The translations under genes were made by a program, and so were the position numbers. A DNA stretch of 64,000 nt, from contig CAXQZU010000009.1 of the NCBI GenBank assembly GCA_964228555.1, positions 14,778 through 78,777 on the forward strand, read 5' to 3'. Below the pieces are notes generated by a model. It was not told where the DNA came from, did not search any database, and worked only from the letters and a program-made list of their open reading frames with translations. This stretch comes from Planctomycetota bacterium (GTDB taxonomy: Bacteria; Planctomycetota; PLA2; JAEUHO01). Below are positions 13,138-62,051 of this stretch, piece by piece. Position 1 is the stretch's first letter; each line of letters opens with the position of its first letter.

Positions 13138-13199
13138 GCGCGCCAGAGTACCCGCAGGGCCTCGCACCCCGATGCTCCCGGGTCGCGTGACCGCGGCCG

Positions 13200-19057: not shown

Positions 19058-19063
19058 GGCGGG

Positions 19064-20136: not shown

Positions 20137-20139
20137 GGC

Positions 20140-21603: not shown

Positions 21604-21707
21604 GCCTCGCGGGCACGGTACCGCAGGGCCGGCCCTCGGGCAACTGCGGCGTGGCGCCGCGCGCGCCGCCTGCGGCGTACGATGCGTGCCCCTCCCCGGA
21701 GCCCGCC

Positions 21708-22025
21708 ATGACGCGTCTCGCCACCCTGCTCTGCCTCGTTCCCAGCGCCCTGCTGGCCGTGCTCCTGCTGGGGCCCGGCACCGCGCCGGCGGCCCCGTCG
21801 CGGCCGGAGGTCGCCTACGAGTACAAGCACCTGATCCTGCCCGTGGAGCGCCGCCTCGAGGCGTACGAGAAGGCGGACGTGCTGCTGCTGGAGGCCCTGC
21901 GCCGCAGCGGCGAGGAGGGCTGGGAGCTCGTCTCGGCCTACGAGCCGCCCAACGGCGTGATGGTGGGCCAGCGCGCCAGCGTCGAGTTCTGGCTCAAGCG
22001 CGCCTACGTGCCCGGCACGCGCTAG
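21708..22025 (+). CDS. DUF4177-like small secreted protein
   Basis: ATG at 21708 inside ORF 21594..22025. Signal peptide MTRLATLLCLVPSALLAVLLLG, then EYKHLILP...EEGWELVSAYEP typical of DUF4177. Divergent from ccoN. Confidence 0.55.
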   Translation: MTRLATLLCLVPSALLAVLLLGPGTAPAAPSRPEVAYEYKHLILPVERRLEAYEKADVLLLEALRRSGEEGWELVSAYEPPNGVMVGQRASVEFWLKRAYVPGTR

Positions 22026-29442: not shown

Positions 29443-29952
29443 TCAGGCACCTGCGATGCGGTCCAGGGCCCGGCGGGCGTCCACGCGCAGGTCCGGGTCG
29501 GGGTCGGACAGTGCCGCGGTGAGCGCGGGCACGGCGGCCTGGCCATGCCGCACCAGGCCGTCGATGGCGCGCTCGCAGGTGCGCGCATCGCCTCCCCGCA
29601 GGCGCGCCACCAGCGCCTCCACGGGCTCCAGCGGCCTGCCCTCGGTGCCGTCCACCTCGCGGTCCGGGTCGTCCAGCGCGCGCCAGTCCTGCTCCACGCG
29701 CTGGACGGGCAGCCCCGCCTCCTCGTCGGCACCGGCCTCGGGCAGCGTCGCGCCGGCGGGCGGGTTGCCCGAGGGCTCCGGCGCAGCGTGCTGGGTGGGC
29801 GGCGTGCGCGCCGCGAGCAGGCCGCGCACGACCAGCAGCACGAAGCCCAGCGCGCCCAGCAGCACCAGCACCAGCGTGCCCGTGTCGAGGGAGGCAGCCA
29901 GCGGCACGAGCAGCATCGGGTCCTCCTCGGGCACCTGCATCGGGGCTGCCAC
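29443..29952 (-). CDS. membrane-anchored HEAT-repeat protein
   Basis: TM LVLVLLGALGFVLLVV; C-terminal PBS-lyase HEAT repeat AIDGLVRHGQAAVPALTAALSDPDPDLRVDARRALDRI; located between tRNA-Leu and folE. Confidence 0.5.
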   Translation of the reverse strand: MAAPMQVPEEDPMLLVPLAASLDTGTLVLVLLGALGFVLLVVRGLLAARTPPTQHAAPEPSGNPPAGATLPEAGADEEAGLPVQRVEQDWRALDDPDREVDGTEGRPLEPVEALVARLRGGDARTCERAIDGLVRHGQAAVPALTAALSDPDPDLRVDARRALDRIAGA

Positions 29953-47613: not shown

Positions 47614-47626
47614 GCGCCAGCCTCCG

Positions 47627-48448
47627 CTAGAGCCGGAACAGGAGGAAGTAGTTGAGCACGGCGTCGCTCACCACGATGAGCAGGATGGAGGTGACCACCG
47701 CGCGGGTCGTGGCCCGGCCCACGCCCTCGGCGCCGCCCTGCACCTCGAAGCCCCGCCAGCAGCCCACGGCCCCGATGATCAAGCCGAAGATCGCCGCCTT
47801 GAGCACGCCGCGCCACACGTCGTCCGGTCCCAGCTGGGCCCACGCCTGGTGGAAGTAGGTCGACGCCGGCACGTCCAGCACGCCCACGGCCACCGCCAGG
47901 CCGCCCAGGATCCCCAGCCAGTCGCCCAGCAAGGTCAGGCAGGGCACCATCAGCACCACGGCCAGCAGGCGGGGCGCCACGACATAGCGCACCGGGTTGA
48001 GCGCCATGGTGCGGATGGCCGTGATCTCCTCGCGCACCACCATGGTGCCGATCTCCGCCGCCAGCGCCGCCCCGATGAAGCCGGTCATGATCACGCCCGT
48101 CAGCAGCGGGCCCAGCTCCAGCACCGTGCCCACGCTCATCAGGTTGCCGACGTAGTGCACGAAGCCCAGCGTCTCCAGGATGTTGCCCCCGATCAGGGCG
48201 AGGATCATCCCCACGAACACGTTGACGAGGAACACCACGCCCAGCGCGCGGGGTCCCACGCGCACGGACTGCTGCAGGAAGGCCGCCATGCCCACGGGCC
48301 GCCGGCGCCACGGCCCCAGCAGCAGGTGGCCGAGGCTGTCCCGCACCAGCAGGCCCAGGCCGCCCAGCAGGTGCACGAGGTCCAGCGCCCCCGCCCCGAG
48401 GGCGTGCACCGGCGTGCGCCGCGGCGGGCTCGTGGGGATCTGGCTCAA
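47627..48448 (-). CDS. mlaE: MlaE-family ABC transporter permease
   Basis: Typical MlaE/YrbE permease with EITAIRTMALNPVRYVVAPRLLA and 5 TM segments. Confidence 0.85.
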   Translation of the reverse strand: MSQIPTSPPRRTPVHALGAGALDLVHLLGGLGLLVRDSLGHLLLGPWRRRPVGMAAFLQQSVRVGPRALGVVFLVNVFVGMILALIGGNILETLGFVHYVGNLMSVGTVLELGPLLTGVIMTGFIGAALAAEIGTMVVREEITAIRTMALNPVRYVVAPRLLAVVLMVPCLTLLGDWLGILGGLAVAVGVLDVPASTYFHQAWAQLGPDDVWRGVLKAAIFGLIIGAVGCWRGFEVQGGAEGVGRATTRAVVTSILLIVVSDAVLNYFLLFRL

Positions 48449-48512
48449 CGGCCCGCTCGGCCTCCGGCTCCCAGGGGTGCAGGACCGGCCACGGCCCGGG
48501 CCCGCCCTGCCA

Positions 48513-48839
48513 TCACTTCAGTGCGTCGGCGCTGGTGGCACGGATGTCGAAGATCGAGGTGAGGTTCGACAGGCGGAACAGGTTCTGCACGGAGGTGGAG
48601 AGCCCGCACAGGCGCAGCCGGCCGCCGTACTTGTTCGTGGCCTGCAGCGCCTCGATGAGCGTGGCCAGCCCGCTGGAGTCGATGAAGGCCACCGCCGTCA
48701 GGTCCACGACCACGGGCGTGGCCTTTTCCTGCAGCGCCGCCCGCAGCTGGGTGCGGAGGTCGGGCGACGTATGCATGTCCACCTGCCCCTCGACGGTGAA
48801 GATGGCAGCGGTGCCCTGGCTGGTGCGGTTGATCTTCAT
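48513..48839 (-). CDS. STAS-domain protein (anti-sigma factor antagonist / MlaB-like)
   Basis: 108 aa, VVDLTAVAFIDSSGLATL with the conserved phosphorylatable Ser. Confidence 0.8.
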   Translation of the reverse strand: MKINRTSQGTAAIFTVEGQVDMHTSPDLRTQLRAALQEKATPVVVDLTAVAFIDSSGLATLIEALQATNKYGGRLRLCGLSTSVQNLFRLSNLTSIFDIRATSADALK

Positions 48840-48866
48840 GCAGGTGGTTCCTGTGGGGGCGTGATC

Positions 48867-49301
48867 CTACGCGAGCGCGGGCGGGGCTGCACGCTTGACG
48901 AGCGTGAGGGTGGTCCCCCCGAAGTCGTTCTTGCGGTACTCCACCGAGTCCATCGTGGCACGCATCAGGTGCACGCCCAGGCCGCCGGGGCGGATCTCGT
49001 CGAGGGGGCGAGACTGGATCTGGCTGGGGTCCACGAAGCGGCCCCGGTCCACCACCTCCACCTGGACCCAGCCGGGGCGGGCACGCAGGTCGATGTCCAC
49101 GGGCTGGTCGTGGCGGTCACGGTAGGCGTGGCGGATGACGTTGGAGACGGCCTCGCTGACAGCCAGCAGCAGCGTGTCCCGGGCCTCGTCGCCGAAGCCC
49201 GCCAGCTCGGCGCCCTGCTGGGCCAGCGCGCGCACCAGCGGCAGGTAGCGCGGGTCGCTGCACAGGCTGACGTGGATGCGGTCGGGGGCGGCCTCGCTCA
49301 C
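48867..49301 (-). CDS. anti-sigma regulatory factor (RsbW/SpoIIAB-like serine kinase, HATPase_c)
   Basis: C-terminal 144 aa of ORF 48867..49664. N-box AVSEAVSNVIRHAY, G-box GGLGVHLM. GTG at 49301 forms a GTGA overlap with the upstream lipoprotein stop. Confidence 0.7.
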   Translation of the reverse strand: MSEAAPDRIHVSLCSDPRYLPLVRALAQQGAELAGFGDEARDTLLLAVSEAVSNVIRHAYRDRHDQPVDIDLRARPGWVQVEVVDRGRFVDPSQIQSRPLDEIRPGGLGVHLMRATMDSVEYRKNDFGGTTLTLVKRAAPPALA

Positions 49302-49720
49302 GGCTGGCTCCCGCCGGAGGCCGTGCGACCCGCCCACCACGCACGCCACGCCTCGACCTGCGCACGCTGCTCGTCGGGGCTGGCGTAGGGCCGGTAGCCC
49401 GTGTCGTGGCCCGTGAGCAGGCGCAGGCTGCGGCCTGCCATCAGGCGCACGGTGGCGTCCTCGTCGTCGAGCAGCTCGATCAAGGCCGGCACCAGGCCGT
49501 CGAGGCCGAGGCGGGCCGCCTCGCCCGCGGCCTGCGCCCGTATGGAGGGGTTCGGGCTGGCAAGGTCCTCGGCCGGCTTCAATGGGCGCGGCGGGCTGCT
49601 GCACGCACCGAGGGCGAGCAGGGCCAGCAGCAGGGCCGTCCCGCAACCTGGGCGCACCCGCCACCCGTCCCCGGAGCCGGCGCGAAGGCTGCTCCGGCCA
49701 AGGACCGTCATCGGGCGCAC
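49298..49720 (-). CDS. HEAT-repeat lipoprotein with Trp-rich C-terminal motif
   Basis: Lipobox LLALLALGACSS; HEAT repeat VPALIELLDDEDATVRLMAGRSL; tail LRLLTGHDTGYRPYASPDEQRAQVEAWRAWW is shared with several paralogs in this window. Confidence 0.6.
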   Translation of the reverse strand: MRPMTVLGRSSLRAGSGDGWRVRPGCGTALLLALLALGACSSPPRPLKPAEDLASPNPSIRAQAAGEAARLGLDGLVPALIELLDDEDATVRLMAGRSLRLLTGHDTGYRPYASPDEQRAQVEAWRAWWAGRTASGGSQP

Positions 49721-49849
49721 GCTCCAGCGGCCAGGCTCGGCCAGGCCGTGGGCGCGATTGTGGGCGCGGACTGCCGCGAACGCAACCTCACAGGGCCCAC
49801 CGTGCTGGCCGCAGGCGCTTTCCCATGCCCGCCGCGCCCGGCCCCGGCC

Positions 49850-50836
49850 TCAGGCCAGCGAGCCCTGCTCCCGGTACCACCGTGCGGTGGCCTGGAGGCC
49901 CTCCGCCAGCGACAGGCGCGCCCGCCATCCCATGACACGGGCCACGGCCTCGCCCGAGCACACCCAGTGCCCCTCGCCCACCTCGGCCACCCGCTCGCGG
50001 CTCAAGAGCAGCGGGCGCCGTGCCAGCTGCCCCAGCGCCTCGGCGCATGACCCCAGCAGGCGCGCCGCAGACGACGGCAGGGCGAGCCGCCTCGGCTCAC
50101 GGCCCACCGCGACGGCGAGCGCTCGCGCCAGCCCCTCCTGCGTCACGGGCGGGTCGCTCGTGATGAACCAGGCCTTGCCCCGTGCCGCAGGCGAGCGGCC
50201 CGCGACCAGCATGCCCGCCGCCAGGTCCTCGACGTGCACGAGGCTCAGGCGCCGGCTGCCTGCGCCCAGCACGGGCAGCAGGCCGCGAGCCACGGCCTGG
50301 AACAGCGCGAGGAAGTCGCGGTCACGGGGCCCGTACACGGCCGGCGGCCGCACGATCACCCACGACAGGTCCCCGCCCAGTGCCTGCAGCCCCTGCTCGG
50401 CCAGGCGCTTGCTGCGCCCGTAGGTCGTGACGGGCCGTAGCGGCGCATCCTCGGCGAGGGCACGCCCGTCGGCCGAGGGCCCCACCGCCGCCAGCGAGGA
50501 GCAGAAGACGAAGCGCTGCACGCCCGCGGCGGCCGCATGCCGGGCCAGCGTCAGGGTGGCGTCGGCATTCACGCGCACCATCTGGCGCCGCGTGCGCGAG
50601 CGCGTGAGCGCGCCCAGGTGCCACACCTCGTCGACGCCGCGCACGGCGTCGGCCAGCCCACGGCCGCTCTCGAGATCGCCCGCCACCACCTCGACGGGCA
50701 GGCCGCGCAGGCGCTCGGGCACCCCCTGCCGCGCGAGGCAACGGAGCTGGGCACCCCCGGCCAGCAGCCGCTCGACGAGGTGGCTGCCGACGAAGCCATG
50801 GGCACCGGTCACGAGGGCCTTCACCCGCGCGAGCAT
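49850..50836 (-). CDS. NAD-dependent epimerase/dehydratase family reductase (candidate ceramide reductase CerR)
   Basis: Start MLARVKALVTGAHGFVGSHL (ATG 50836) inside ORF 49850..50884. Extended SDR Rossmann motif and YxxxK-like YGRSK. Divergent from the spt gene. Confidence 0.75.
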   Translation of the reverse strand: MLARVKALVTGAHGFVGSHLVERLLAGGAQLRCLARQGVPERLRGLPVEVVAGDLESGRGLADAVRGVDEVWHLGALTRSRTRRQMVRVNADATLTLARHAAAAGVQRFVFCSSLAAVGPSADGRALAEDAPLRPVTTYGRSKRLAEQGLQALGGDLSWVIVRPPAVYGPRDRDFLALFQAVARGLLPVLGAGSRRLSLVHVEDLAAGMLVAGRSPAARGKAWFITSDPPVTQEGLARALAVAVGREPRRLALPSSAARLLGSCAEALGQLARRPLLLSRERVAEVGEGHWVCSGEAVARVMGWRARLSLAEGLQATARWYREQGSLA

Positions 50837-51030
50837 ACGGCCGTCGGCACGGCCCCCGCCGCGGCGGCCGCCCGCCACGCCCACGCTCGCTGCCGGCGTG
50901 GTTCACTGTCGGCATCCCCCCTACGATGAGACGAGACCGCGGGCGCAGGCGGCCCGGTCGCCAGGCCTCCCCGGGCCCCAAGACCAGCCCTCGCGTCCCC
51001 GGCCGCCCCACCCCACGAGGACGTCCCGCC

Positions 51031-52227
51031 TTGGACCTGTTCGAGAAGGCCGCCCGCTTCGCGCGCGCTGACCTGCTCAAGCAAGCGGGCCTCTACCCGT
51101 ACTTCCGGGCCATCGAGGAGAGCGAGGGCGGGCGCCGGGTGCGCATCGGCGGCCGCACCATCGTGATGGCCGGGTCGAACAACTACCTGGGCCTCACCCA
51201 CGACCCCCGCGTGCTGGAGGCGGCGCGCGAGGCCGTCAGCCGCTACGGCGCGGGCTGCACCGGCTCGCGCTTCCTGAACGGCACGCTGGCCCTCCACGAG
51301 CAGCTGGAGGAGCGCCTGGCGCGCTTCCTGGGCCAGGAGGCCTGCATCACCTCGGGCACCGGCTTCCAGACCAACGTGGGCGCGATCTCGGCACTGGCCT
51401 CCAGCCGCGAGGACCTGATCTTCGGCGACCGCGACAACCACGCCTCCATCATCGATGGCTGCCGCCTCTCCTTCGCCAAGCAGCTGAAGTACCGCCACAA
51501 CGACATGGACGACCTCGGGCGCCTGCTGCGCGAGACGCCCGTGAGCGAGGGCGGCTCGCGGCTGGTGGTGACCGATGGCGTGTTCAGCATGCTGGGCGAC
51601 CTGGCCCCGCTGCAGCGCATGCTGCCGCTGGCGCACGAGCACGGTGCCCGCGTGATGGTGGACGACGCACACGCCCTGGGCGTGCTGGGCGCGCGCGGGC
51701 GCGGGACGGCCGAGCACCTGGGCGTGCACGACCAGGTCGACCTCATCAGCGGCACCTTCAGCAAGAGCATGGCCTGCCTGGGCGGCTTCGTGGCCGGCCC
51801 GCGCGTCGTGGTGGACCTGATCAAGCACACCAGCCGCTCGGTCATCTTCTCGGCCAGCATGACGCCCGCCAGCGTGGCCACCGTGCTGGCCTGCCTCGAC
51901 ATCGTCGAGCGCGAGCCGGCACGTCGCGAGCGCCTGTGGGCCAACGTGCGGCGCATGAAGCAAGGCTTCCAGGAGATGGGCCTCGAGGTCATCGACGGGG
52001 GCAGCCCCATCCTGAGCGTGGTGGTGGGCGAGGAGCAGCCCACGCTGGAGTTCAACAACCTGCTCTTCGCGCACGGCGTGTTCGTCAATCCCGTGATCCC
52101 GCCGGCCGTGCCGCAGGGCATGTGCCTGCTGCGCACCTCGTACATGGCCACCCACACCGACGAGGACCTCGACGCCATCCTCGCGGGCTTCAAGAAGGTG
52201 GGCGAGCGCCTGCGCGTCCTGCGCTAG
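51031..52227 (+). CDS. spt: serine palmitoyltransferase-like alpha-oxoamine synthase (class II PLP aminotransferase)
   Basis: LDLFEKAARFARADLLKQAGLYPYFRAIE matches the SPT N-terminus; PLP-lysine motif GTFSKSMACLGG; N(N)YLGL. Start placed at TTG 51031 (GAGGA 11 nt upstream); ORF track starts at 50926 with an unlikely Arg/Pro-rich leader. Confidence 0.8.
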   Translation: MDLFEKAARFARADLLKQAGLYPYFRAIEESEGGRRVRIGGRTIVMAGSNNYLGLTHDPRVLEAAREAVSRYGAGCTGSRFLNGTLALHEQLEERLARFLGQEACITSGTGFQTNVGAISALASSREDLIFGDRDNHASIIDGCRLSFAKQLKYRHNDMDDLGRLLRETPVSEGGSRLVVTDGVFSMLGDLAPLQRMLPLAHEHGARVMVDDAHALGVLGARGRGTAEHLGVHDQVDLISGTFSKSMACLGGFVAGPRVVVDLIKHTSRSVIFSASMTPASVATVLACLDIVEREPARRERLWANVRRMKQGFQEMGLEVIDGGSPILSVVVGEEQPTLEFNNLLFAHGVFVNPVIPPAVPQGMCLLRTSYMATHTDEDLDAILAGFKKVGERLRVLR

Positions 52228-52245
52228 GCGGCCCGCGTCCCGCCC

Positions 52246-53388
52246 GTGCCCTTGCAGGACCTCGAGGTGCGCGCCACGCGCCCGGGCCGCGAGGAACGCC
52301 TGTTCCTGCGCCTTCCCTACCGCCTCTACGACGGCCAGCCCGGGTGGGTCCCCCCGCTGCGCATGGCCGAGGCGGCCCTGCAGGACCGCCGCTCCAACCC
52401 CTTCTTCCGGCACAGCGAGGCCCAGCACTTCCTCGCATGGCAGGGCGGACGCGTGGTGGGCCGCGTGGCCGCCATCGAGAACCGGCGCCACAACGAGGTG
52501 CACGCCGAGCGCATCGGATTCTTCGGGTTCCTGGACGCCGAGCCCCGCGTGCAGGTGTTCCGGGCGCTGCTGGAGGCTGCGGCCGCGTGGTGCCGGCAGC
52601 GCGGCCTGCTCGCGCTGCGCGGACCCGCCTCCTACAGCACCAACGACACCTGCGGCACGCTGGTCGAGGGCTTCGGGCAGCGGCCCGCGGTGCAGATGCC
52701 CTGGAACCCGCCGGGCACCGACGCGCTGCTGCAGTCCGCCGGGCTGCGTCCGGCCCAGGACCTGGTGGCCTGCTGGCTGGCCGCGTCGCTGCCCGCCCCC
52801 GAGCGCTTCGAGCGGGTCGTGTCGCGCCGCCTCGAGCGCAGCGGCATCCGGCTGCGCCCGCTGGACCTGCGCGACTTCGCGCGCGAGGTGGAGGTGCTGC
52901 GCGACCTCTACAACCGCTCCTGGGAACGCAACTGGGGCTTCGTGCCGGCCACCGAGGAAGAGTTCCGCCACGCGGCCAAGGACCTCAAGTCCGTGGTCTC
53001 TCCGCAGCTCTCCTGCGTGGCCGAGGAGCAAGGCCGCCCGGTGGGATTCTGCGCCGTGCTGCGGGACGTGAACGCCGTGCTGGCCCCGCGCGGCCACGGG
53101 GGCCTGTTGCCCACCAACCTCTGGCGCCTGCTGGTGGGGCTGCCGCGCGTGCGCCGCTACCGCGTGATCGCGCTGGGCGTCGTGCCGGAGGCGCGCGGCA
53201 AGGCCATCAACGAGGCGTTCTTCCTGCATGCCCACGCTGCCTGCCGCCGCCTGGGCCATGAGGGCGCCGAGGCCTCGTGGATCCTCGCGGACAACCAGCG
53301 CATGCTGGCGCCCATCGAGGCCATGGGCGGCGTGGTGACCAAGCGCTACCGGCTCTACGAGCAGCCCTTGGCGCCGTCCACGCCCTAG
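52246..53388 (+). CDS. GNAT-fold N-acyltransferase-like protein (candidate bacterial ceramide synthase bCerS)
   Basis: 380 aa, 18 nt downstream of spt; approximately 380-aa acyl-CoA N-acyltransferase-like architecture (RLPYRLYDGQPGWVPPL, NPFFRHSE, FGFLDA). Confidence 0.65.
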   Translation: MPLQDLEVRATRPGREERLFLRLPYRLYDGQPGWVPPLRMAEAALQDRRSNPFFRHSEAQHFLAWQGGRVVGRVAAIENRRHNEVHAERIGFFGFLDAEPRVQVFRALLEAAAAWCRQRGLLALRGPASYSTNDTCGTLVEGFGQRPAVQMPWNPPGTDALLQSAGLRPAQDLVACWLAASLPAPERFERVVSRRLERSGIRLRPLDLRDFAREVEVLRDLYNRSWERNWGFVPATEEEFRHAAKDLKSVVSPQLSCVAEEQGRPVGFCAVLRDVNAVLAPRGHGGLLPTNLWRLLVGLPRVRRYRVIALGVVPEARGKAINEAFFLHAHAACRRLGHEGAEASWILADNQRMLAPIEAMGGVVTKRYRLYEQPLAPSTP

Positions 53389-53409
53389 GCGGCGAGCGCC
53401 GCCGCGGGG

Positions 53410-54822
53410 CTAGCCGCGCGGCTGGCCCTGCCGCAGGCGCACGTCGGCCTCGTTGTCCTTCCACCAGGCCCCCCAGGCCTTCTGGGCGCGCTTGAGCTCG
53501 TTGCGGGGCTGGCCGGCCTGGAAGGGCTCCTGGTGGCCCGTGATGGCGATGAGCGCCTGCTGGGCCGCGGTCTGGACCAGCTGCTCCCGGTCGTCCAGCG
53601 CCTCGATCAGGCCCGGCACGGCGTCACAGGCCTTGAGCTCGCGCAGCGCGTCGGCGGCGCCCAGCCGCACGTAGAAATCCCGATGCGACTTGAGCGCCGC
53701 GAGCAGGGCGTTGACCGCCCGCAGGTCCTTGAGCTCGGCCAGCTTGATGGTGGCGTTGAAGGCGATGCCCGCGTTGGGATCCTTGAGCAGGGCCACCCAG
53801 TGCTGCAGCATGCCGTCGTCGGCCGTGGGCGCCGTGGGTGCGGCGGGCCCCGGTGCCGCGGGCGCCGCGGGTGCTGCCGGAGCCGGCGCGGGCGGGGCGG
53901 GCACCGGCGCCGCCGGCGCAGCCTCGGGCTGCCGCGCCCGCGCAGGCTGGCCGCTGGCGCGCGCCTGCACGTCGCGCAGCCAGTCGTAGACCTGCCGCAG
54001 GCGGGCATCCAGCGTGCGCAGCGTCGCGTCCGAGGCCTCCAGGCGGGACTGCGTGCCCGCCTGCAGATCCTTCACCTGCTCGGACAGTGCCTGCAGCTCG
54101 GTGCGCACAGCCTGGCCCGCCTGCACCTGCTGGGCCAGCGCCGCCTGCTGCGCATCGAGGATGCCCAGGCGCTCGTCCGGGGCGCGGCGCGCGTCGGCCA
54201 GCGTGCGCGCGGCCTGCTCCTCGATGGCGGCCGCCACCGCCGGGCTCACGGCCTGCGTCTGCGCCGGGCGCAGGCGGTCGTAGAGCACCCAGCCGGCGGC
54301 GCCGAGAGCCAGCAAGGCCAGCAGCGTGGCCAGCGGCGCGCCCCGGCGCGGCGGCGCCAGCAGGCGACGGCCCACGCAGGCGGGGCACAAGGCCCTGCCG
54401 CCCGCCCGCACAGCCCTGCCCGTGCCGAAGTCCGCCTCGGGCACCGACTGGCTGCAGCCCGCGCAGAAGGAAATGGTCACCGGGGCGCTCCCCGCCGGCA
54501 GCTTGGCCACGGACGGCGGCAGGTCCAGCCCCAGCGGGGCGGTGCGCGCGCCCACCGGCCGGTCCGCCAGCTGCTCGAGGGCGAGGCAGGCCGCGCACGC
54601 GTTGCGGCCGGCCACGCTGCGAGCCTTGCCCAGCGCCACGTCCGCGTCCGGGATCGACTCGTGGCAGGCGTCGCAGAAGCGCAGCTCGATGCCCGCGCCC
54701 GGAGCCGACGCCGCGATGCAGGCTGCGCAGGCATGCCGGCCGCCGGCCGTGCGCGCGCGGCCCGCCGCGAAGTCGGCGTCCGGGATCGACGCCTGGCACG
54801 CCTCGCAGAATCGGATGTCCAT
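53410..54822 (-). CDS. triple MJ0042-type zinc-ribbon / TM / coiled-coil / HEAT-repeat protein with Trp-rich C-terminus
   Basis: ATG 54822 (MDIRFCEAC). Three tandem CxxC...CxxC ribbons (RFCEACQASIPDADF...ACAAC; RFCDACHESIPDADV...ACAAC; SFCAGCSQSVPEADF...CPAC), TM LATLLALLALGAAGWVLY, coiled coil, PAPAAPAAP linker, HEAT repeats, tail IAITGHQEPF...AWGAWW. Confidence 0.7.
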   Translation of the reverse strand: MDIRFCEACQASIPDADFAAGRARTAGGRHACAACIAASAPGAGIELRFCDACHESIPDADVALGKARSVAGRNACAACLALEQLADRPVGARTAPLGLDLPPSVAKLPAGSAPVTISFCAGCSQSVPEADFGTGRAVRAGGRALCPACVGRRLLAPPRRGAPLATLLALLALGAAGWVLYDRLRPAQTQAVSPAVAAAIEEQAARTLADARRAPDERLGILDAQQAALAQQVQAGQAVRTELQALSEQVKDLQAGTQSRLEASDATLRTLDARLRQVYDWLRDVQARASGQPARARQPEAAPAAPVPAPPAPAPAAPAAPAAPGPAAPTAPTADDGMLQHWVALLKDPNAGIAFNATIKLAELKDLRAVNALLAALKSHRDFYVRLGAADALRELKACDAVPGLIEALDDREQLVQTAAQQALIAITGHQEPFQAGQPRNELKRAQKAWGAWWKDNEADVRLRQGQPRG

Positions 54823-54915
54823 GCATGCCTCGCACACGGGGGACGCCGGCCGTCCGCCGCCCCCCCATCCTACCCGCGCACGCCACGCAGGGGGCGGCCC
54901 CTGCCGGCGCAAGGC

Positions 54916-55863
54916 CTAGCCGGCCTTGGGCTGCTTGAGCCGCTCGCGCACCGCCGCCTCGTTGCGGTTCCACCACTCCAGCATCTCGCCGCGAGCCTTG
55001 CTGCGCTCGGCGGGACGGGCCTGCGGCGTCAGCCCGAGGTCGTGCTCGGTGATGAGGCGCAGGGACTTGCCCGCCTGCTGCGCGACCATCTGCGTCTTGT
55101 CCTTCAACGCATCGGCCAGGGCCGGCACCGCGTCGCAGGCACGCAGGTCGCCCAGGGCGCTGGCCGCGGCCTGGCGCATCAGGTAGTCGTCGTGCGCGGC
55201 CAGGATCTTCACCAGCTTGGGGACGGACGCCATCACCTGCCGCCGCGCCACGACGGTGATCGCGGGGTAGATGGTCTCGGGCTGGTCGCTGTCGAGGTCG
55301 GCGAGCGCCTTCTCCACGATGGCCTTCGCGACCAGCGGATCCTCCTGCACGCTGGGCAGCTCCGGCTTGGGCAGGCCAGGCAGGGTGGCCTTCGGGGCCG
55401 CCGGCGTCGCCGCGGGCTTGGGGCCTGCTGCGGGCGCCGCGGCCACCGCCACGGGGCGCTCCTCCACGGCCTTCACGCGGGCCTCGAGGGCGGCCAAGGC
55501 CTTCGTCTCGCGGTCCAGGCCGGCGCTCAGGGTCGTGAGCACGGCCTCCAGCTCCTCCAGCTTGCCCGAGGCCAGGTCGGCTGAGGACTGCACGCGGGCC
55601 TGCGCTTGCTGCAGCCCCTCGGTCGCGCCCGAGAGCAGGTCCTGCAGCCGCTTGAGGCGCTGGTCCAGCTCGCGCTGGGCCGACTGGTCGCGCGCCGCCG
55701 CCGCGCGCTGCACTTCCTCGGCCAGCTGGCGCGCCACCTTGTCCACCTCGGCGCTCGACAGCGCGACGGTGACGGCGGCCGGGGCCTCGGCGCCACGCGG
55801 CAGCAGGGACACGACGCCGGCCGCCAACGCCAGCAGCGACACGACCAGTGCGACCTTGTTCAT
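54916..55863 (-). CDS. membrane-anchored coiled-coil / HEAT-repeat protein, paralog of the C-terminal half of 53410-54822
   Basis: Signal/TM MNKVALVVSLLALAAGVVSLL, coiled coil, Pro/Ala linker, HEAT repeats, tail LRLITEHDLGLTPQ...EMLEWW. Confidence 0.7.
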   Translation of the reverse strand: MNKVALVVSLLALAAGVVSLLPRGAEAPAAVTVALSSAEVDKVARQLAEEVQRAAAARDQSAQRELDQRLKRLQDLLSGATEGLQQAQARVQSSADLASGKLEELEAVLTTLSAGLDRETKALAALEARVKAVEERPVAVAAAPAAGPKPAATPAAPKATLPGLPKPELPSVQEDPLVAKAIVEKALADLDSDQPETIYPAITVVARRQVMASVPKLVKILAAHDDYLMRQAAASALGDLRACDAVPALADALKDKTQMVAQQAGKSLRLITEHDLGLTPQARPAERSKARGEMLEWWNRNEAAVRERLKQPKAG

Positions 55864-55911
55864 GGGCTACCTCGCAGGGAGATGCTACGACGCCACGGGG
55901 GCGACCGAGGC

Positions 55912-56298
55912 CTAGTCTTCCTCGCCCTCGCCACCGCGGCGGGTCTCGAAGTCCCCGCCCTGCGCGATGAGGGCCACGCGTTCCTTCATCTGCCGCCCGA
56001 CCTTGAAGCGCACCACGCGCTTGGCCGGCACGTCCACCTTCTGCAGGGTGCGCGGGTTCTGCGCGATGCGCGCCGCCCGGTCCTTGATCTCGAAGACGCC
56101 GAACTCGCGGAACTCGATGCGGTTGCCCCGGCCCAGCTCGCGGATGATCTCGTCGAGGAAGAGCTGGATCACGTCCTTGACCACGACCTTGGTCTGGGCG
56201 GTGCGCTCGGCGATGCGCGCCACCAGCTCCTTCTTGGTGATCGTGTGGCCGCCAGGGCCACGCGGGCTGTCAGGACGGGGGCTGGGGGGCTGGGGCAT
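55912..56298 (-). CDS. HU/IHF-family DNA-binding protein with Pro-rich N-terminal and acidic C-terminal extensions
   Basis: ITKKELVARIAERT, GNRIEFREFGVFEIKDRAAR, NPRT...V.VPAKRVVRFKVGR: classic IHF/HU fold signatures. Confidence 0.85.
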   Translation of the reverse strand: MPQPPSPRPDSPRGPGGHTITKKELVARIAERTAQTKVVVKDVIQLFLDEIIRELGRGNRIEFREFGVFEIKDRAARIAQNPRTLQKVDVPAKRVVRFKVGRQMKERVALIAQGGDFETRRGGEGEED

Positions 56299-56427
56299 GC
56301 GCGATGGGTCTCCCGGCGCGGGGGGCGCCCGCCGCCGTGGCGGAACTCCCTAGATCGTTGTGGCGCCGAACTTTAGGATCAGGGCTCGCGCCTGTCAAAG
56401 GGCCACCCCCACCCCCACGAGGCAGCC

Positions 56428-56847
56428 ATGGCCCAACCCTCCCTTCCCGACGCCCTCGCGATGCGGGACCTGCGCGCCGGACTGCGTCCCGAGGCCCAGC
56501 GGGAGCAGGTGGCGGCGGCCCTGCGGGCGGACGGCCGGCACGTGCAGGCCCTGCTGCTCTACGAGGGCCGCGCCAGCCACCCGGCCCTGGAGGGCCAGCA
56601 GGCCCGCGCCGTGCGCGAGGGCCGCACCTTCGAGCTGCTGTCCATGCGGCGGCTGGGCCGGCCCGTGCCGGACACCGACCTGCGTGCCGCCGCTGCGGCC
56701 TCCGCAGCAGCCGGACGGCACATGGAGGCACGCCTGGCCCTCACGGCCCTCGGCGACCTCGACGGGGTGCGCGCGCTGGCGGCCTGCCTGCCCCCCAGCC
56801 TCGTGCCGCCCCCGCCGGCACCGCCTGCGGCGCCCGCGAAGGCCTAG
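56428..56847 (+). CDS. hypothetical protein
   Basis: 139-aa ATG ORF divergent from the IHF-like gene; non-repetitive N-terminal 95 aa; no family recognised; could be spurious. Confidence 0.3.
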   Translation: MAQPSLPDALAMRDLRAGLRPEAQREQVAAALRADGRHVQALLLYEGRASHPALEGQQARAVREGRTFELLSMRRLGRPVPDTDLRAAAAASAAAGRHMEARLALTALGDLDGVRALAACLPPSLVPPPPAPPAAPAKA

Positions 56848-56862
56848 CCCGCCCCGGCGGGC

Positions 56863-59142
56863 TCAGCGCGCACCCGCGCCCGCCGCCTCCTCTGCATCCT
56901 CCTCGGCCTGGCGCTGCTGGAGGCGCTGCCGCAGGTCGGTGAAGCGGGCTCGCAGGCGCTCGACCTCGGACGAGGGCGCAGCGAGGTCCAGCCGGGAGAG
57001 GCCCTCGCGCACCATGTCGAGCGCGGCGCCGTAGCTGCCGAAGTGCATGCCGCGGATCTGGGCTGCCCAGTAGCGTGCCTCGAACGACGACGGGTCCAGC
57101 CGCAGCGCCTCCTCGTAGTCGTCGGCTGCCAGCCGCATGGTGTCCGGGCTCTCCTGGCTGGCCCGTGCGCTGCGCAGCAGGCTGGCCACCCGCTCGGCCT
57201 GCGCCTCGCGACCAGCCTCGAGCTGCCGCCCGGCATGGACCCGCAAGGCCGGGTCGGGGTGCTCGAGGGCCACCTCGTGCAGCACCCCGAGGCCCGCCTC
57301 GTAGCGACCGTCCGCGACCAAGGCCTGTGCGCAGCGCCACAGCAGGTCCAGGTCGGGCGTCGCGCGCGCGAGGCGGGCAGCGGCTCGCTCGTGCAGCAAC
57401 GCCTCCAGCGCGGCGTCGGCGGCCGCCTGCGGCTTGCCCTGCATGGCCTGCGCGCGCAGGAGCGCAGCGTAGATGCGCGCGGCGCTGCGCCGCTCCCGGA
57501 TGCTGGACTCCGAGCGCGCGCCTGCGCGCCCGGACAGCAGCGGGTGCAGGCGCCGGGCCTCGCCCAGCGTCTCGAGCGCATCGGCGGGTGTCGCCGTCTC
57601 CAACTGCAGCAAGGCCAGCACCAGCCAGCCCTGGGCGTCGTGGCGCGTGGCCGGGTGACGCGTGGCCGCCTGCGCGAGGTCCATCGCCTCGGCGCGCGCG
57701 TCGCGGGCAGCCTCGAGCAAGGGCGCCCGGCCCGGGTCGCGCCACGGGTCGTTGTCGCGCACCGGCCTGCGCGCGGCCTCGGCGTGCAGCCGGTCCGCTT
57801 CCTGCCGCAGCCGGTCCGCGCGCCGCAGCAAGGCGGGCCCATGGCTGCCCGGCAAGGCGAGCAAGCGCGCGTGCACCGCGTCCTCGCTGGCCATGCCGCG
57901 GGCCACGCGCACGCTGAGCAAGGTGAGGCACAGGAGCACGAGGCCGGGCATCCATCCCGCCAGCACCCGGCGCGCATGGCTGGCCGCTGCCCAGGCAGCC
58001 AGCGACTCCGCCGCCAGCCCTGCCAGCACGGCCAGCGCGGGCAGGGCGAGCGACGCCCAGCGGTCCTCCAGCACGCTCCCGAGCGGCAAGGCCAGGCTGG
58101 CACCGACCAGCAGCGAGGCGGCCACGAGCACGCTGGCGCGCATCGCGGCCAAGGCCCCACGGCGCACGGGCAGCAGCCATGCGGCCAGCACCACGACACT
58201 GGCCACGAACACGGCGACGAGGCGCGGACCCTCCAGCAGCCAGCCGCGACCGGGCTGCGCCTCGTGCGTGCGGTCGGCCACCCATCCCACGGGCAGGGCC
58301 AGGTGCAGGCCGGCGCGCGCAAGGGCCTCCAGGCCCTGCGCGATGCGCCCCAGCAGGCCGGGCTCGTCGGCATCCACGCCCGGCAGGCCCGGGCCGTGGC
58401 CCCACCAGAGCGCAAGCCACAGCGCCGCCCCCACGAGCGAGGCCAGCACGGGCCCCACGCAGGTCGAGGCGGGGCGCGATGCGTCCGCACGCCGGGCCGT
58501 GAGCGCCAGCAGCCAGGCCACCACGGGCAGGGCCACCCACGCCTCGCACGCGAGCAAGGCCAGCAGCGTGCATGCCGCCACCCACGCCAGCCTCGCGGGC
58601 TGGCCCGGCTTCCAGCCCAGCGCCAGCCAGAGGGCCGACGACGCCAGGACCGTCCCCAGCAACAGGCTGCGCCCCACCAGCAGCGCCACCGCACCGGTGG
58701 CCAGCGGGTGCGCGGCCACCACGAGGCCCACGCACAACCCCAGCACCCGCCGGCCAGGAGCCACGCGCCAGGCGATCAGGGTCGAGAGCACCGCCACCAG
58801 CGCGTGCAGCAGCAGGTTGGTCGCATGACCCGCGGGCAGCGCGGCCTCGGAGCCCAGCAGCGCGCGCTCGACGGCAAGGCTCGCGACCGCCAGCGGGCGC
58901 CACGGCTGCTGCTCGAGCTGGCCCGGCCCGTGCGGCTGGCGGAAGGCAGCCGGCAGCGCGGCCCAGCCCCGCTCCAGCACCGGGTTGGAGGACACCACCG
59001 GCACGTCGTCGAGCACCGCGCGGCCCGCCAGCGTGGCACCTTGCGCGAGCAGCGCCACCAGCGCCACCAGCGCCAGCCCACGGGCCAGGCCGCCGGGCGA
59101 CCGGGCCGCGGCATGCGGCGCAGGATCGGGCGGCTCGGCCAT
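56863..59142 (-). CDS. polytopic membrane protein with C-terminal TPR repeats (GT-C fold, PMT/TMTC/ArnT-like glycosyltransferase candidate)
   Basis: ATG 59142 (MAEPPDP) chosen to avoid a 115-nt overlap with the upstream gene. About 11 TM helices with an LDDVPVVSSNPVL loop (DD/DE acidic motif plus NP, reminiscent of PMT/TMTC), then TPR-like helical repeats. Confidence 0.6.
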   Translation of the reverse strand: MAEPPDPAPHAAARSPGGLARGLALVALVALLAQGATLAGRAVLDDVPVVSSNPVLERGWAALPAAFRQPHGPGQLEQQPWRPLAVASLAVERALLGSEAALPAGHATNLLLHALVAVLSTLIAWRVAPGRRVLGLCVGLVVAAHPLATGAVALLVGRSLLLGTVLASSALWLALGWKPGQPARLAWVAACTLLALLACEAWVALPVVAWLLALTARRADASRPASTCVGPVLASLVGAALWLALWWGHGPGLPGVDADEPGLLGRIAQGLEALARAGLHLALPVGWVADRTHEAQPGRGWLLEGPRLVAVFVASVVVLAAWLLPVRRGALAAMRASVLVAASLLVGASLALPLGSVLEDRWASLALPALAVLAGLAAESLAAWAAASHARRVLAGWMPGLVLLCLTLLSVRVARGMASEDAVHARLLALPGSHGPALLRRADRLRQEADRLHAEAARRPVRDNDPWRDPGRAPLLEAARDARAEAMDLAQAATRHPATRHDAQGWLVLALLQLETATPADALETLGEARRLHPLLSGRAGARSESSIRERRSAARIYAALLRAQAMQGKPQAAADAALEALLHERAAARLARATPDLDLLWRCAQALVADGRYEAGLGVLHEVALEHPDPALRVHAGRQLEAGREAQAERVASLLRSARASQESPDTMRLAADDYEEALRLDPSSFEARYWAAQIRGMHFGSYGAALDMVREGLSRLDLAAPSSEVERLRARFTDLRQRLQQRQAEEDAEEAAGAGAR

Positions 59143-59174
59143 GGCTGGGGCAGGCGTCCCCGGAGGGCCGCGCG

Positions 59175-61175
59175 CTAGCCCTTGCGCGCCGGGGCCGGTC
59201 GCTTGACGGGCTTGTAGGCCAGCGCGGAGGTGTCGAGCACCAGCATCTTCTTGCAGTAGTCCTCGAAGTCCTTCTGCAGGCCCGCCCACGAGTCCGGATC
59301 GTCGGCACTCACCTTGAAGGCGGCACGGAAGGCGCGCGCGCCCTCCTCGCGGTTCATCACGGCCTTGAGGTAGGCCATGAGGCTGTCACGGTACTTGCCG
59401 CCCAGCTGGTCCATGCACATCTCGAACAGCCATGCGCCCTGCTGGTAGATGAACATCTGCTGGCCCCAGCCCGGGTCCAGGCCCATGCGCGCGGCATGCT
59501 GCATCGCGTCGGCGTAGGTGGTCCAGGAGGTGAGATCCTCCAGCTTCACCACGGGGTAGTCCTTGCCCATCTTCTTGAGGGCCGCCGCCATGCCCTGCGC
59601 CTCGCGCAGCCGGGTGTAGTTGCGGCCGGTGAAGGACAGCTTGCCGTCCTCGCTGAGCTTGTGCGAGCCGAAGTACTCCGCGAGGCCCTCGCCCCACCAG
59701 TCCTGCGTGAAGTTCTTCTTCGGGCTCCAGCCGTTGATCTGCATGCCGAACCAGTGCTCGAGCTGGTGCGTGCCCTCGTGCAGGTTCTTGGCGATCTCGA
59801 AGACGCGCGCATCGCCCTCGTTCCTCTCGTCGAAGAGGTAGATCCACGCCGTCTTCCACTCGAAGTAGCCGCCCACGCCGTCGGGCAGCTTCATGCCCTT
59901 CACCTCGTGGAACTTGTTGAATGCGTCCTTGTCCTCGAAGATCCACACCACGAGCGGCACGCCGCCCTGGTAGGACGCCTTCTTGGCAGCCACGAGGTCC
60001 GGCCGGCCGCCCCACTCGTCGCTCAGGTCGTTGAGGCCCAGCGCCTGCTTGAAGCGCCGGTTCCACTCCTCGTAGAGCTGCGTGTAGATCGCCTGCTTCT
60101 CGTCCATCAGCGGCTCGAACTCGGCGCGCTTGGCGGCCAGGCGCTCGCGCTCCTTCTTGCGCTCCGAGCGGGGCATGCCCAGCAGGTCCAGGTCGCTGAG
60201 GCGGTCCTTGGAGGCATAGCAGATCAGGTGCGGCGGGCTCCAGCGCACGGCGAAGTTCTGGTCCTTGAACAGCTTGTCCTGGAGGATGTTGTTCCAGATG
60301 TCGTCGCCCGCGCGGTAGAGGCGGTCCTCGCGCAGCTTGCGCGCGTGCTCCTGCACCTCCCGGAGTGCCTCGGCCGCCAGGCGGCGGTCCTCCTCGTCCT
60401 TGAGCCAGCGCTGCGCATTGGCGGCCTCGAAGGCCGCGATGAAGGGCCGGCCCTTGGTCTGGCTGATCTCCTCGGGCAGGGGGTGGCGGAACTCCTCGTA
60501 GCCCAGCGCCGCACGCGCCTCCTTGTCGTCGCTGCCGTAGGCCGTCTCCACGTACTGCTCGTAGGTGGCCAGCAGCGTGGCCTTGGCGGGCTCGCCCAGG
60601 TCCTTGAGGCGCGCGATGAAGCCCTTCCAGTCCTTGCCCTTGCGCGTGTCGGCCGGCGACTTCTGCATGTCGGCCTTGACCTGCACGAGGCTGTCCTTGG
60701 GCGCCTCGACCACCGGCGCAGGCGCCGGCGGGCCGCCGGCCGAGGTGCCCTGCGGCTTGTCCTTGCCGCCTCCGGCCATGAGGGCCACGACCACGATCGC
60801 CACCACGAGCGCAGCGCCGCCCCCGACCAGCGCCATCGGCGGGCCCTTGCGCGCCGGCGGGGCACCGCGCCCGGCACGCTCGTCGCGCTCGGCGCGGCTG
60901 GCCCGCTGGGGCGCCGCAGGCGCGGCCTGCGTGGGCTCCTGCGCCCGCTGGGCCGGCTTGAACTGGGGCCCCCGGGGGCTGCGCGCGGCGCCCACGCTGG
61001 AGGCCGCGGGCGCAGCCGGGCTGCGGCCGGGCGGCGGCGCGGCCGGCGCAGCGCCGGGGGCCCCCGCGTGGGCGGTCATCAGGGCGCCGCAGGCGCCGCA
61101 GCGGAACTGCTGTCCCTTGGCGAAGGCCGAGACGTCGAACTGGGCCTGGCAGGACGGGCACGCCTGAAGCTTCAT
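59175..61175 (-). CDS. MJ0042-type zinc-ribbon / TM / HExxH-motif protein (putative membrane-anchored metallopeptidase)
   Basis: N-terminal CPSCQAQFDV...RCGACGA ribbon, Pro/Ala linker, TM ALVGGGAALVVAIVVVALMAGG, ~480-aa extracytoplasmic domain containing NLHEGTHQLEHWFG (HExxH). Confidence 0.65.
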   Translation of the reverse strand: MKLQACPSCQAQFDVSAFAKGQQFRCGACGALMTAHAGAPGAAPAAPPPGRSPAAPAASSVGAARSPRGPQFKPAQRAQEPTQAAPAAPQRASRAERDERAGRGAPPARKGPPMALVGGGAALVVAIVVVALMAGGGKDKPQGTSAGGPPAPAPVVEAPKDSLVQVKADMQKSPADTRKGKDWKGFIARLKDLGEPAKATLLATYEQYVETAYGSDDKEARAALGYEEFRHPLPEEISQTKGRPFIAAFEAANAQRWLKDEEDRRLAAEALREVQEHARKLREDRLYRAGDDIWNNILQDKLFKDQNFAVRWSPPHLICYASKDRLSDLDLLGMPRSERKKERERLAAKRAEFEPLMDEKQAIYTQLYEEWNRRFKQALGLNDLSDEWGGRPDLVAAKKASYQGGVPLVVWIFEDKDAFNKFHEVKGMKLPDGVGGYFEWKTAWIYLFDERNEGDARVFEIAKNLHEGTHQLEHWFGMQINGWSPKKNFTQDWWGEGLAEYFGSHKLSEDGKLSFTGRNYTRLREAQGMAAALKKMGKDYPVVKLEDLTSWTTYADAMQHAARMGLDPGWGQQMFIYQQGAWLFEMCMDQLGGKYRDSLMAYLKAVMNREEGARAFRAAFKVSADDPDSWAGLQKDFEDYCKKMLVLDTSALAYKPVKRPAPARKG

Positions 61176-61262
61176 CGGGGCTCCTTGCCGCCACCCCGCG
61201 GGGCTGGGGAGCCGAGGCGCGGCGCCCGGTTTATAGCACGACGCGCCGGGCCGCCGGGCGGC

Positions 61263-62051
61263 CTACCACGCAAAGCCCTGCTTGCGATTGGCCTCGATCC
61301 ACTCCCGGGCCGCCGCCGTGCTGGGGAAGTCCTGGCCCGTGAGGGCCTTGATCGCAGCGTGCGTGGCCGCCTTGGACTCGTTCCACAGGTGCCAGCGCTC
61401 CTCCCACCAGGAGGCGGGCGGGCTGTTGGGGTCCGAGGGGTTGGTGGACACCGGCTCGTCGATGTTCTCGGCCAGCCAGCGCGCGAAGCGCTTGTCCTTC
61501 GCCTGCTCGGCATAGAAGGCGATGTCCACCAGCTGGCCCACGTTGGTGCGTGCAGGATTGCCCACGGTCCAGCGCCACTGCTTCTCCACCTCGTCGTACT
61601 GCTTCTTGTCGAGCACCACGCCCATCCGGCCCAGCGCGCGCAGCACCTTGGCACGCACCGCCGGGCGCTTGTCGTTGGCGGCCTGTCCCCACGACGCCGC
61701 CCACAGGCCCTTCCAGGCCGGGTAGGCGCGCAGCTCGAGCAGCTCGGCAGCGCGCAGGGCCACGACCGGCTCGGCGTGCTTGAGCAGCCGCAGCAAGCCC
61801 TTCTCCAGCTGGACATGCTTGAGGCCGCGCAACGCCTGCAGCGCGCGCAGCGCCTCGTCGGCCTTGCGCGCCTTGCCCGCCTCCTCCACGGCGGCCAGCA
61901 GCACGGGCAGCTGCTCGGCGCTGGCCTCGGTCACCTCGGTCTCGAGGTCCTCGCCCTCGGCGGCCAGCCGGGACGGGAAGGCCAGCGCCACCAGCACCAG
62001 CGCGATCAGGCTGCAGGCGCGCACGAGACGGTGCGGGGGGCGAGCGCTCAT
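61263..62051 (-). CDS. secreted HEAT/helical-repeat protein with Trp-rich tail (same paralog family)
   Basis: Signal peptide ACSLIALVLVALAFPSRLAA; tail IKALTGQDFPSTAAAREWIEANRKQGFAW and internal PPASWWEERWHLW. Confidence 0.55.
   Translation of the reverse strand: MSARPPHRLVRACSLIALVLVALAFPSRLAAEGEDLETEVTEASAEQLPVLLAAVEEAGKARKADEALRALQALRGLKHVQLEKGLLRLLKHAEPVVALRAAELLELRAYPAWKGLWAASWGQAANDKRPAVRAKVLRALGRMGVVLDKKQYDEVEKQWRWTVGNPARTNVGQLVDIAFYAEQAKDKRFARWLAENIDEPVSTNPSDPNSPPASWWEERWHLWNESKAATHAAIKALTGQDFPSTAAAREWIEANRKQGFAW

Follow-up and report, generated by a model that had tools for sequence, protein, structure and literature searches.

HEAT repeats of the PBS-lyase type (Pfam HEAT_2, PF13646, and HEAT_PBS, PF03130) are 31-residue helix hairpins that recur in CpcE/CpcF, NblB, YibA and the alphaRep designs. 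We analyzed a stretch of 64,000 nucleotides from a Planctomycetota bacterium (assembly GCA_964228555.1, contig CAXQZU010000009.1, positions 14,778 to 78,777; the window), with a GC content of ~75%. Here we describe three of its minus-strand genes, A, B and C, whose products carry such repeats followed by a Trp-rich tail, together with the neighbors D and E (coordinates in the table). The repeats themselves are ordinary PBS-type HEAT, with the common pattern D..VR..AA.AL..IG....AVP.LI.AL.D and sequence matches of 2e-29 to alphaRep and 6e-5 to CpcE. The PBS-type proteins lack the TG-DFGYDP loop and the W..WW helix of the tail, and PDB matches end at position 15 of the profile described below. 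Unlike them, the proteins studied here appear to be extracytoplasmic, have two to three repeats per unit, and nothing ties them to bilin lyase activity.

Membrane anchors with a cytoplasmic zinc ribbon offer a second comparison. The ribbon of Caulobacter ZitP recruits a cytosolic partner, as the GltJ ribbon does. In GltJ (AgmX), of the Myxococcus Agl-Glt system, a cytoplasmic ribbon at the N-terminus recruits a cytosolic regulator; behind it come one transmembrane (TM) segment, a flexible stretch in the periplasm and, at the C-terminus, a globular domain (PMC11135422). B resembles GltJ, ZitP and periplasm-spanning anchors of the TonB/TolA type in layout only (PMC11135422). GltJ has TonB-C at its C-terminus, whereas B has the HEAT domain with its tail (hereafter the capped HEAT domain) and no GYF domain. 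Neither B nor C matches TonB_C or TolA-III in Pfam or NCBIfam, the B ribbons have no detectable sequence similarity to those of GltJ or ZitP, and no Agl, Exb or Tol motor genes were found in the window.

Two further systems invite comparison. Like PqiC and MlaA, the lipoprotein partners of MCE/Mla systems, A is a small predicted lipoprotein, encoded first in an apparent operon with MlaE and an MCE/PqiB-like gene. This likeness is one of gene context only, with no relation in sequence or fold, and the A operon adds an RsbW-like kinase and STAS pair and has no ATPase. The sorting tags PEP-CTERM, MYXO-CTERM, GlyGly-CTERM and T9SS CTD resemble the tail in being conserved motifs that lie at the C-terminus of envelope proteins or close to it; the tail differs in that it has no TM helix or basic end, also stands in tandem copies inside proteins and has a predicted fold.

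The HEAT domain and tail of A, B and C

The first-pass annotation, made from the sequence of the window, had proposed four paralogous HEAT proteins, A to D, with a near-identical C-terminal motif, L-T-G-H-D...W-x-x-W-W. The list of open reading frames (ORFs) confirms the gene coordinates and the minus strand, and the frames of A-E are backed by a GC content at third codon positions of 0.89-0.96. HEAT_2 scores lie above the Pfam gathering cut-off of 27.7 bits for A (31.9), B (43.9) and C (33.9); D reached 20.9 bits. The HEAT_2 match in each of A, B and C stops at '...L[RI].[LI]' and ~40 residues of tail come after. When window proteins and distant members were scanned with Pfam and NCBIfam, no model extended over this tail. 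The motif as proposed is present in A and B, and C carries the variant ITEHD...MLEWW.

We examined the tail with a hidden Markov model (HMM) trained on database proteins alone, leaving out the window's own sequences and the HEAT repeat region. In a search of all 596 six-frame ORFs in the window, the tail-only HMM found A (E=9e-20), B (2e-15) and C (8e-8), with the next ORF at 0.14, a gap of at least six orders of magnitude between these three and the other 593. The match to C is the most independent evidence for the tail, because the training set held orthologues of A and B and none of C. Ungapped tail identity amounts to 11-15 of 38 positions, equalled in 0-3 of 100,000 shuffles. BLAST aligned B and C at 32% identity across 139 aa, and A aligned with B and C at 36-43% identity in the last HEAT repeat and tail only. 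Together the results show that A, B and C are genuine paralogues with a common HEAT domain and tail, each having its own orthologues and the three being kept together across a lineage. The similarity that the first-pass annotation had offered for refutation is thus statistically supported, and no known Pfam or NCBIfam family spans it.

D does not belong to this family. It was detected by neither of two tail HMMs at E<=20, hhalign against the module returned a probability of 0.7%, and BLAST found no similarity to A, B or C. Furthermore, a distant syntenic locus (L006; numbers with L and P are our labels for loci and proteins) retains A, B, C and E and has no counterpart of D. Generic HEAT similarity or chance is the best description of D, and the proposed family of four is reduced to three.

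The tail is widespread. A 49-position profile comprising the last HEAT helix and the tail, searched against 1.84 billion representative proteins, matched 3198 protein clusters at E<=1e-3 and 139 at E<=1e-10; the weakest of the 3198 may be long generic HEAT arrays, as generic repeats align to profile positions 1-15. The tail is present in all 146 of the best representatives. From 199 units we obtained the consensus VR.AA..AL..[IL]TGqDFG[FY]DP.A...ER....[VI]..W+.WW..N, in which the three Trp positions, occupied at 89%, 97% and 94%, are among the most conserved; a short form, ITGQDFGxDxxxWxxWWexN, was also found. Multiple copies, internal and tandem, occur in 65 of the 146 representatives at 2-10 per protein. 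In P0099-P0104, for example, four units occur at a spacing of ~95 aa, and very large proteins have up to ten matched stretches. The last copy lies <=25 residues from the C-terminus in 126 of the 146. In a crude hydrophobicity scan, 88 of the 122 full-length representatives had a hydrophobic segment at the N-terminus, upstream of the first tail copy. A lipobox, signal peptide or TM segment ahead of the domain indicates from sequence an extracytoplasmic location, and the scan agrees with a domain that is mainly extracytoplasmic. Protein homologue searches yielded proteins up to ~1.7x the query length, so that domain queries under-report multi-domain architectures; the architecture statistics were therefore drawn from the representative-protein search.

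Structure prediction places the tail within the fold. An AlphaFold2 (AF2) model of the last 140 residues of B, made with 14 aligned relatives, reached a mean per-residue confidence (pLDDT) of 96.5 and a predicted template modeling score of 0.90. It consists of six HEAT helices, an 11-residue loop (residues 99-109) and a 26-residue helix (110-135) with KAWGAWW, the tail itself having a pLDDT of 96-98. A full-length model of B with 29 orthologues reproduces the capped HEAT domain. Foldseek against the PDB superposed the three HEAT repeats only, on alphaRep designs and CpcE, at a root-mean-square deviation of 0.9-1.5 Å over ~90-98 columns, as expected of a HEAT-like alpha-solenoid. Sequence and profile searches found no PDB chain with the tail. 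The i/i+3/i+4 spacing of the Trp residues puts them on a single helical face. From the high model confidence, this spacing, the extreme conservation and the tandem copies we conclude that the tail most likely forms an integral part of the predicted fold, either a C-terminal cap or a connector between units.

Anchors, presumed stalk and zinc ribbons

The three paralogues differ in what precedes the domain, and the anchors described in the first-pass annotation were all recovered: a lipobox in A, three CxxC...CxxC ribbons followed by a TM helix in B, and an N-terminal hydrophobic anchor in C. A is predicted to be a lipoprotein by the pattern [LVI][ASTG][GA]C. Its lipobox Cys is kept in most orthologues and has an equivalent in the lipoproteins of L011 and L012, and its tail is nearly invariant among orthologues. 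A is annotated in loci L001-L004, where annotations of metagenome-assembled genomes (MAGs) give it 119 or 137 aa.

B has the most elaborate layout. Its ATG start at 54822 is supported by a MAG annotation and by orthologues starting M[DE]I[RL]FC. The ribbons and an Arg-rich segment before the TM helix indicate, by sequence rules, that B is bitopic with its N-terminus inside and its HEAT domain in the periplasm. The predicted 96-residue helix, which would be ~14 nm long if straight, attracts coiled-coil-type noise matches in Pfam. The 46-residue linker after it differs in sequence and length among orthologues, whereas W453 and W454 in the tail are invariant across the 29 orthologues. The AF2 model, with this helix and linker, is compatible with a periplasm-spanning protein.

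Close relatives of B fall in ~28 clusters. Four have the triple ribbon, at 65-66% identity, and ribbon 1 is confined to these closest orthologues. The others, at 35-52% identity and 348-376 aa, have a single ribbon that aligns with the third copy of B, where F119, C120, C123 and C149 are invariant. In the wider set, ~30 of the 146 best representatives share the layout of B and an N-terminus of the form M.I.FCD.CNES.P..D...G.A....G...C..C. The proposed order of cytoplasmic zinc ribbon, TM helix and periplasmic HEAT domain is therefore real for B and recurs.

C has a B-like layout that begins directly at its anchor, with no ribbons. Its orthologues are found in L013 and L014 and as P0181 and P0277. 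In L014 the orthologue is extended by 20 cytoplasmic residues ahead of the hydrophobic segment, which favors a TM anchor over a signal peptide.

The ribbons had been called MJ0042-type, and this assignment was not supported. Those of B are three C-x2-C-x22-C-x2-C units, modeled by AF2 as paired beta-strands at pLDDT ~90, whose Cys positions in orthologues are invariant or Cys/His. With two CxxC knuckles on beta-hairpins they look like generic zinc ribbons, and metal binding is predicted. B did not match TIGR02098 even at E<=1, its best Pfam ribbon match was DZR (21.3 bits against a cut-off of 27.3), and no PDB ribbon matched. The ribbon of E scored 16.0 bits against TIGR02098 (E=0.0074; cut-off 20.9) and was below threshold for Pfam Zn_ribbon_4; its best PDB match was the GltJ/AgmX ribbon 7zok at E=0.048.

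The locus is also present, with the gene boundaries called here, in MAG GCA_046089665.1 (L001). In NCBI, B and C carry the label 'HEAT repeat domain-containing protein [Planctomycetia bacterium]', and E is called hypothetical. Scans of Pfam and NCBIfam for a curated family over the tail or the B ribbon gave generic HEAT models only, and literature searches for a described HEAT, zinc-ribbon or periplasmic family returned nothing relevant. The cap, the ~95-residue super-repeat and the family combining zinc ribbon, TM helix, stalk and capped HEAT domain thus appear undescribed, with no match in library or literature searches. The capped HEAT domain is no categorically new system.

Possible roles as scaffold, docking motif or lipid accessory

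As a whole, the explanation that we favor, and consider fairly probable, is that A, B and C are ancient paralogues displaying in the periplasm, from different anchors, one and the same extracytoplasmic capped HEAT domain. The evidence at least strongly indicates that two to three PBS-lyase-type HEAT repeats make up the solenoid of the domain, and that the last repeat helix (AL..ITG) passes through a conserved loop (DFG[FY]DP.A...ER) into a ~25-residue helix with W..WW on one face. This Trp helix would cap or stabilize the short solenoid. A would hang in the periplasm from its lipid anchor. B and C would stand on the inner membrane by a long helical stalk, probably a coiled coil formed when the long helix oligomerizes, and then a flexible Pro/Ala linker. 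The stalk of B and a linker of up to ~15 nm would let the domain sit far from the inner membrane. On the other side, the zinc ribbons of B (three here, one in most relatives) would face the cytoplasm and could recruit a cytosolic partner. The HEAT surface may bind proteins as a scaffold, joining inner-membrane-anchored members to lipoprotein members, or may bind a common periplasmic ligand. Capped HEAT proteins would then probably constitute a periplasm-spanning scaffold.

Several points weigh against this explanation. All relatives are metagenome-derived and annotated solely as 'HEAT repeat domain-containing protein' or hypothetical, and no member has a known interaction, ligand or phenotype. 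The topology is deduced by sequence rules, oligomerization of the long helix is assumed, and burial of the Trp residues is read from confidence scores and conservation; a strongly conserved surface Trp would fit a binding motif equally. In addition, among five loci encoding more distant ribbon-TM-stalk proteins, a capped-HEAT lipoprotein adjoins the ribbon-TM-stalk protein in only two (L011 and L012).

A Trp-rich helix that serves as a docking motif, homotypic or heterotypic (A with B or C) or for one common periplasmic partner, is the next candidate, and we hold it to be possible though rather unlikely. The W..WW and ER positions are extremely conserved over thousands of proteins, several capped HEAT proteins with different anchors are encoded at one locus, and the adjoining lipoprotein and ribbon-TM members of L011 and L012 would suit such pairing. 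Yet the helix is a confident part of the predicted fold and is reiterated within single polypeptides, and the co-occurrence may be mere lineage-wide synteny, which includes the housekeeping genes Mdh and Asd.

Gene context suggests a third candidate, in which the proteins are envelope-lipid accessories: A a PqiC-/MlaA-like partner of MlaE and MCE, and B and C associates of the serine palmitoyltransferase (Spt), bCerS-like and CerR-like genes. The stop codon of A overlaps the GTG start of the RsbW-like kinase (GTGA), and A, kinase, STAS, MlaE and MCE (46273-49720) appear to form an operon in which a partner-switching pair is joined to a lipid transporter of the Mla type. The same order is found in L001-L004, L007-L010, L013, L014 and the P0275 contig. 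The three genes between A and B encode an epimerase, an alpha-oxoamine synthase and a GNAT-like protein, and by sequence look like an Spt/bCerS/CerR ceramide cluster; the trio is syntenic in all related loci. Spt, bCerS and CerR genes are often clustered in bacteria, and 138 Planctomycetota MAGs from the Black Sea encode Spt-like proteins (PMC11334938). The order HU/IHF, C, B, GNAT-like, Spt-like, epimerase, A, kinase, STAS, MlaE, MCE, Mdh is kept down to 35-37% identity of B, and in L013 and L014 the A-, B- and C-type proteins all retain the tail.

The lipid role is nevertheless improbable. The syntenic block also holds unrelated housekeeping genes (Mdh, Asd), the operon has no MlaF ATPase, the oxoamine synthase scored 491 bits against an NCBIfam cut-off of 640 for Spt, and the bCerS and CerR labels are putative. 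The more distant ribbon-TM-stalk proteins have no adjoining lipid genes in any of the five loci, and for this reason the link to lipid synthesis or transport stays a hypothesis. Its appeal is that no transporter of bacterial sphingolipids is known (bioRxiv 10.1101/2023.11.08.566215). In its boldest form, to which we give still less credence, the A/B/C triad would be a dedicated trans-envelope lipid-trafficking apparatus of Planctomycetia, working with the RsbW/STAS-regulated MlaE-MCE system and the Spt, bCerS-like and CerR-like genes on lipids that are probably ceramide-type. The Trp-capped HEAT domains would bridge inner and outer membrane and the ribbons would couple to a cytosolic regulator. 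If true, the triad supplies candidates for bacterial sphingolipid transport machinery.

That the tail is a localization or sorting signal like PEP-CTERM, MYXO-CTERM or the T9SS CTD, a role that had been suggested for it, is very improbable. Members are envelope proteins and the last copy usually lies close to the C-terminus. However, the tail often occurs 2-10 times within one protein and therefore is no purely C-terminal signal, no hydrophobic helix or basic cluster follows the motif, and the tail is hydrophilic or amphipathic. Likewise, no NCBIfam CTERM model matches A-D, the carriers already have lipoprotein, signal-peptide or TM targeting, and the motif is confidently predicted as a folded helix. 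Least credible of all is generic HEAT similarity, or chance arising from base composition in a genome of 75% GC: the window encodes at least five HEAT_2 proteins and W..WW strings occur ~20 times in its six-frame translation, mostly in non-coding frames, but the tail-only HMM and the shuffles refute it for A, B and C, and generic HEAT proteins (alphaRep, P0278, P0279) align to profile positions 1-15 only.

Neighboring genes and significance

Beside the distant ribbon-TM-stalk genes a different neighbor recurs. In four of the five loci a small TPR gene is divergently transcribed next to them; its products have 136-185 aa and no signal peptide, are 46-59% identical to each other, and are candidates for the cytosolic partner of the ribbon-TM-stalk proteins. 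In the window a 139-aa ORF (56428-56847, plus strand) with no family match is divergent from IHF-C-B. Because related loci retain it (59% identity in L013, 46% in L006), it is probably a real gene. We rejected it as the counterpart of the small TPR genes, to which it has no significant similarity.

D, E and a polytopic membrane protein with C-terminal TPR (56863-59142/59289, 759-808 aa) are arranged head to tail at 56863-62051 (minus strand); E and the polytopic protein are kept in syntenic loci. E is no HEAT protein. The ribbon, TM segment and HExxH described for it are present, the last as HEGTH, in a region that matches DUF1570 (PF07607, an MA-clan metallopeptidase family) at 21.4 bits (E=3.2e-4), just under the cut-off of 22.

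Further HEAT proteins had been noted at 2644-5447 and 29443-29952. The first of these stretches is two genes, and the second scored below threshold. A lipoprotein at ~2644-3950 (minus strand) combines HEAT_2, a degenerate internal tail-like stretch ESLERLTGLPLGLDPVAWRAA, which is a marginal match (E=0.015), and a C-terminal VWA domain; at 3948-5447 lies a TM-anchored HEAT protein of 499 aa. In the distant locus L012 the capped-HEAT lipoprotein is likewise preceded by a VWA protein, of 763 aa. M56/BlaR1-type proteins were considered as carriers of a capped HEAT sensor and rejected, as P0278 and P0279 carry generic HEAT repeats only.

Two other features of the window deserve mention. A 942-aa frame at 13191-16019 (plus strand) has ComEC-type Competence and DUF4131 domains and a C-terminal DUF92 integral membrane domain, and could be either a gene fusion or a pair of genes read together. 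At 16205-21993 (minus strand) a cbb3-type oxidase cluster (COX1-like, FixO-like) is followed by a 952-aa protein in which a cytochrome c domain at residues 150-229 is the sole recognized part, ~800 residues being unmatched.

Table. Positions of genes and protein features in the window (small TPR genes: positions in their own loci)
Feature	Position	Strand	Basis
MCE/PqiB-like protein, 446-464 aa	46273-47667	-	NCBIfam
MlaE permease	47627-48448	-	NCBIfam
STAS/MlaB-like protein	48513-48839	-	NCBIfam
RsbW-like kinase	48867-49301	-	NCBIfam; GTG start
Gene A, small predicted lipoprotein with capped HEAT domain, 140 aa from GTG	49298-49720	-	ORF; HEAT_2 31.9 bits
A, N-terminal signal region ending in lipobox LLALGAC (Cys40)	49601-49720	-	Sequence
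A, HEAT repeats, residues 53-102	49415-49555	-	Pfam HEAT_2 and HEAT
A, tail TGHDTGYRPYASPDEQRAQVEAWRAWWAGR, TG loop and Trp helix	49325-49414	-	Tail HMM, E=9e-20
SDR/epimerase (CerR-like?)	49850-50884	-	SDR/epimerase family match
Alpha-oxoamine synthase	50926-52227	+	Best NCBIfam match serine palmitoyltransferase NF047600, 491 bits against cut-off 640
380-aa protein (bCerS-like?)	52246-53388	+	Faint GNAT match only
Gene B, 470 aa: three zinc ribbons, TM, long helix, Pro/Ala linker, capped HEAT domain	53410-54822	-	ORF; AF2
B, zinc ribbon 1 (C6, C9, C32, C35)	54715-54822	-	Sequence; AF2 beta-hairpins, pLDDT ~90
B, zinc ribbon 2	54583-54690	-	Sequence, alignment, AF2
B, zinc ribbon 3	54373-54480	-	Alignment with single ribbon of all other family members
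B, TM helix APLATLLALLALGAAGWVLY	54280-54339	-	Hydrophobic segment; AF2 helix 163-183
B, 96-residue helix, residues 194-289, presumed coiled-coil stalk	53956-54243	-	AF2, pLDDT 93-97
B, disordered Pro/Ala-rich linker, residues 290-335 (46 aa)	53818-53955	-	AF2, pLDDT 47-54, no secondary structure
B, three HEAT repeats, six helices	53542-53817	-	HEAT_2 43.9 bits; AF2, pLDDT 96.5
B, tail TGHQEPFQAGQPRNELKRAQKAWGAWWKDNEADVRLRQ, 11-residue loop and 26-residue helix	53428-53541	-	Tail HMM, E=2e-15; AF2
Gene C, 315 aa: N-terminal anchor, helical region, Pro/Ala linker, capped HEAT domain	54916-55863	-	ORF; HEAT_2 33.9 bits
C, N-terminal hydrophobic segment, signal anchor or signal peptide	55801-55863	-	Sequence
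C, tail TEHDLGLTPQARPAERSKARGEMLEWWNRNEAAVRERL	54937-55050	-	Tail HMM, E=8e-8, training set with no C orthologue
Gene E, neighbor, no HEAT protein	59175-61175	-	Ribbon, TM, DUF1570-like domain
E, zinc ribbon	61077-61175	-	
E, TM segment	60765-60836	-	
E, HEGTH, residues 466-470, in DUF1570-like domain	59754-59780	-	
Gene D, secreted 262-aa protein, weak HEAT-like region	61263-62051	-	HEAT_2 20.9 bits against 27.7
Small TPR genes of distant loci	L011 691-1131; L015 3679-4236; L016 3260-3673; L017 117-527	divergent	

Our analysis brings out a discrete, sequence-recognizable extracytoplasmic domain in thousands of protein clusters for which databases show generic 'HEAT repeat' only, and a conserved membrane family (zinc ribbon, TM helix, stalk, linker and capped HEAT domain) with no studied member. 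Planctomycete-type envelopes are rich in capped HEAT proteins, and a curated model would allow them to be annotated better. Should the link to the ceramide and Mla/MCE genes prove functional, the family would also bear on how sphingolipids are transported to the outer membrane in bacteria.

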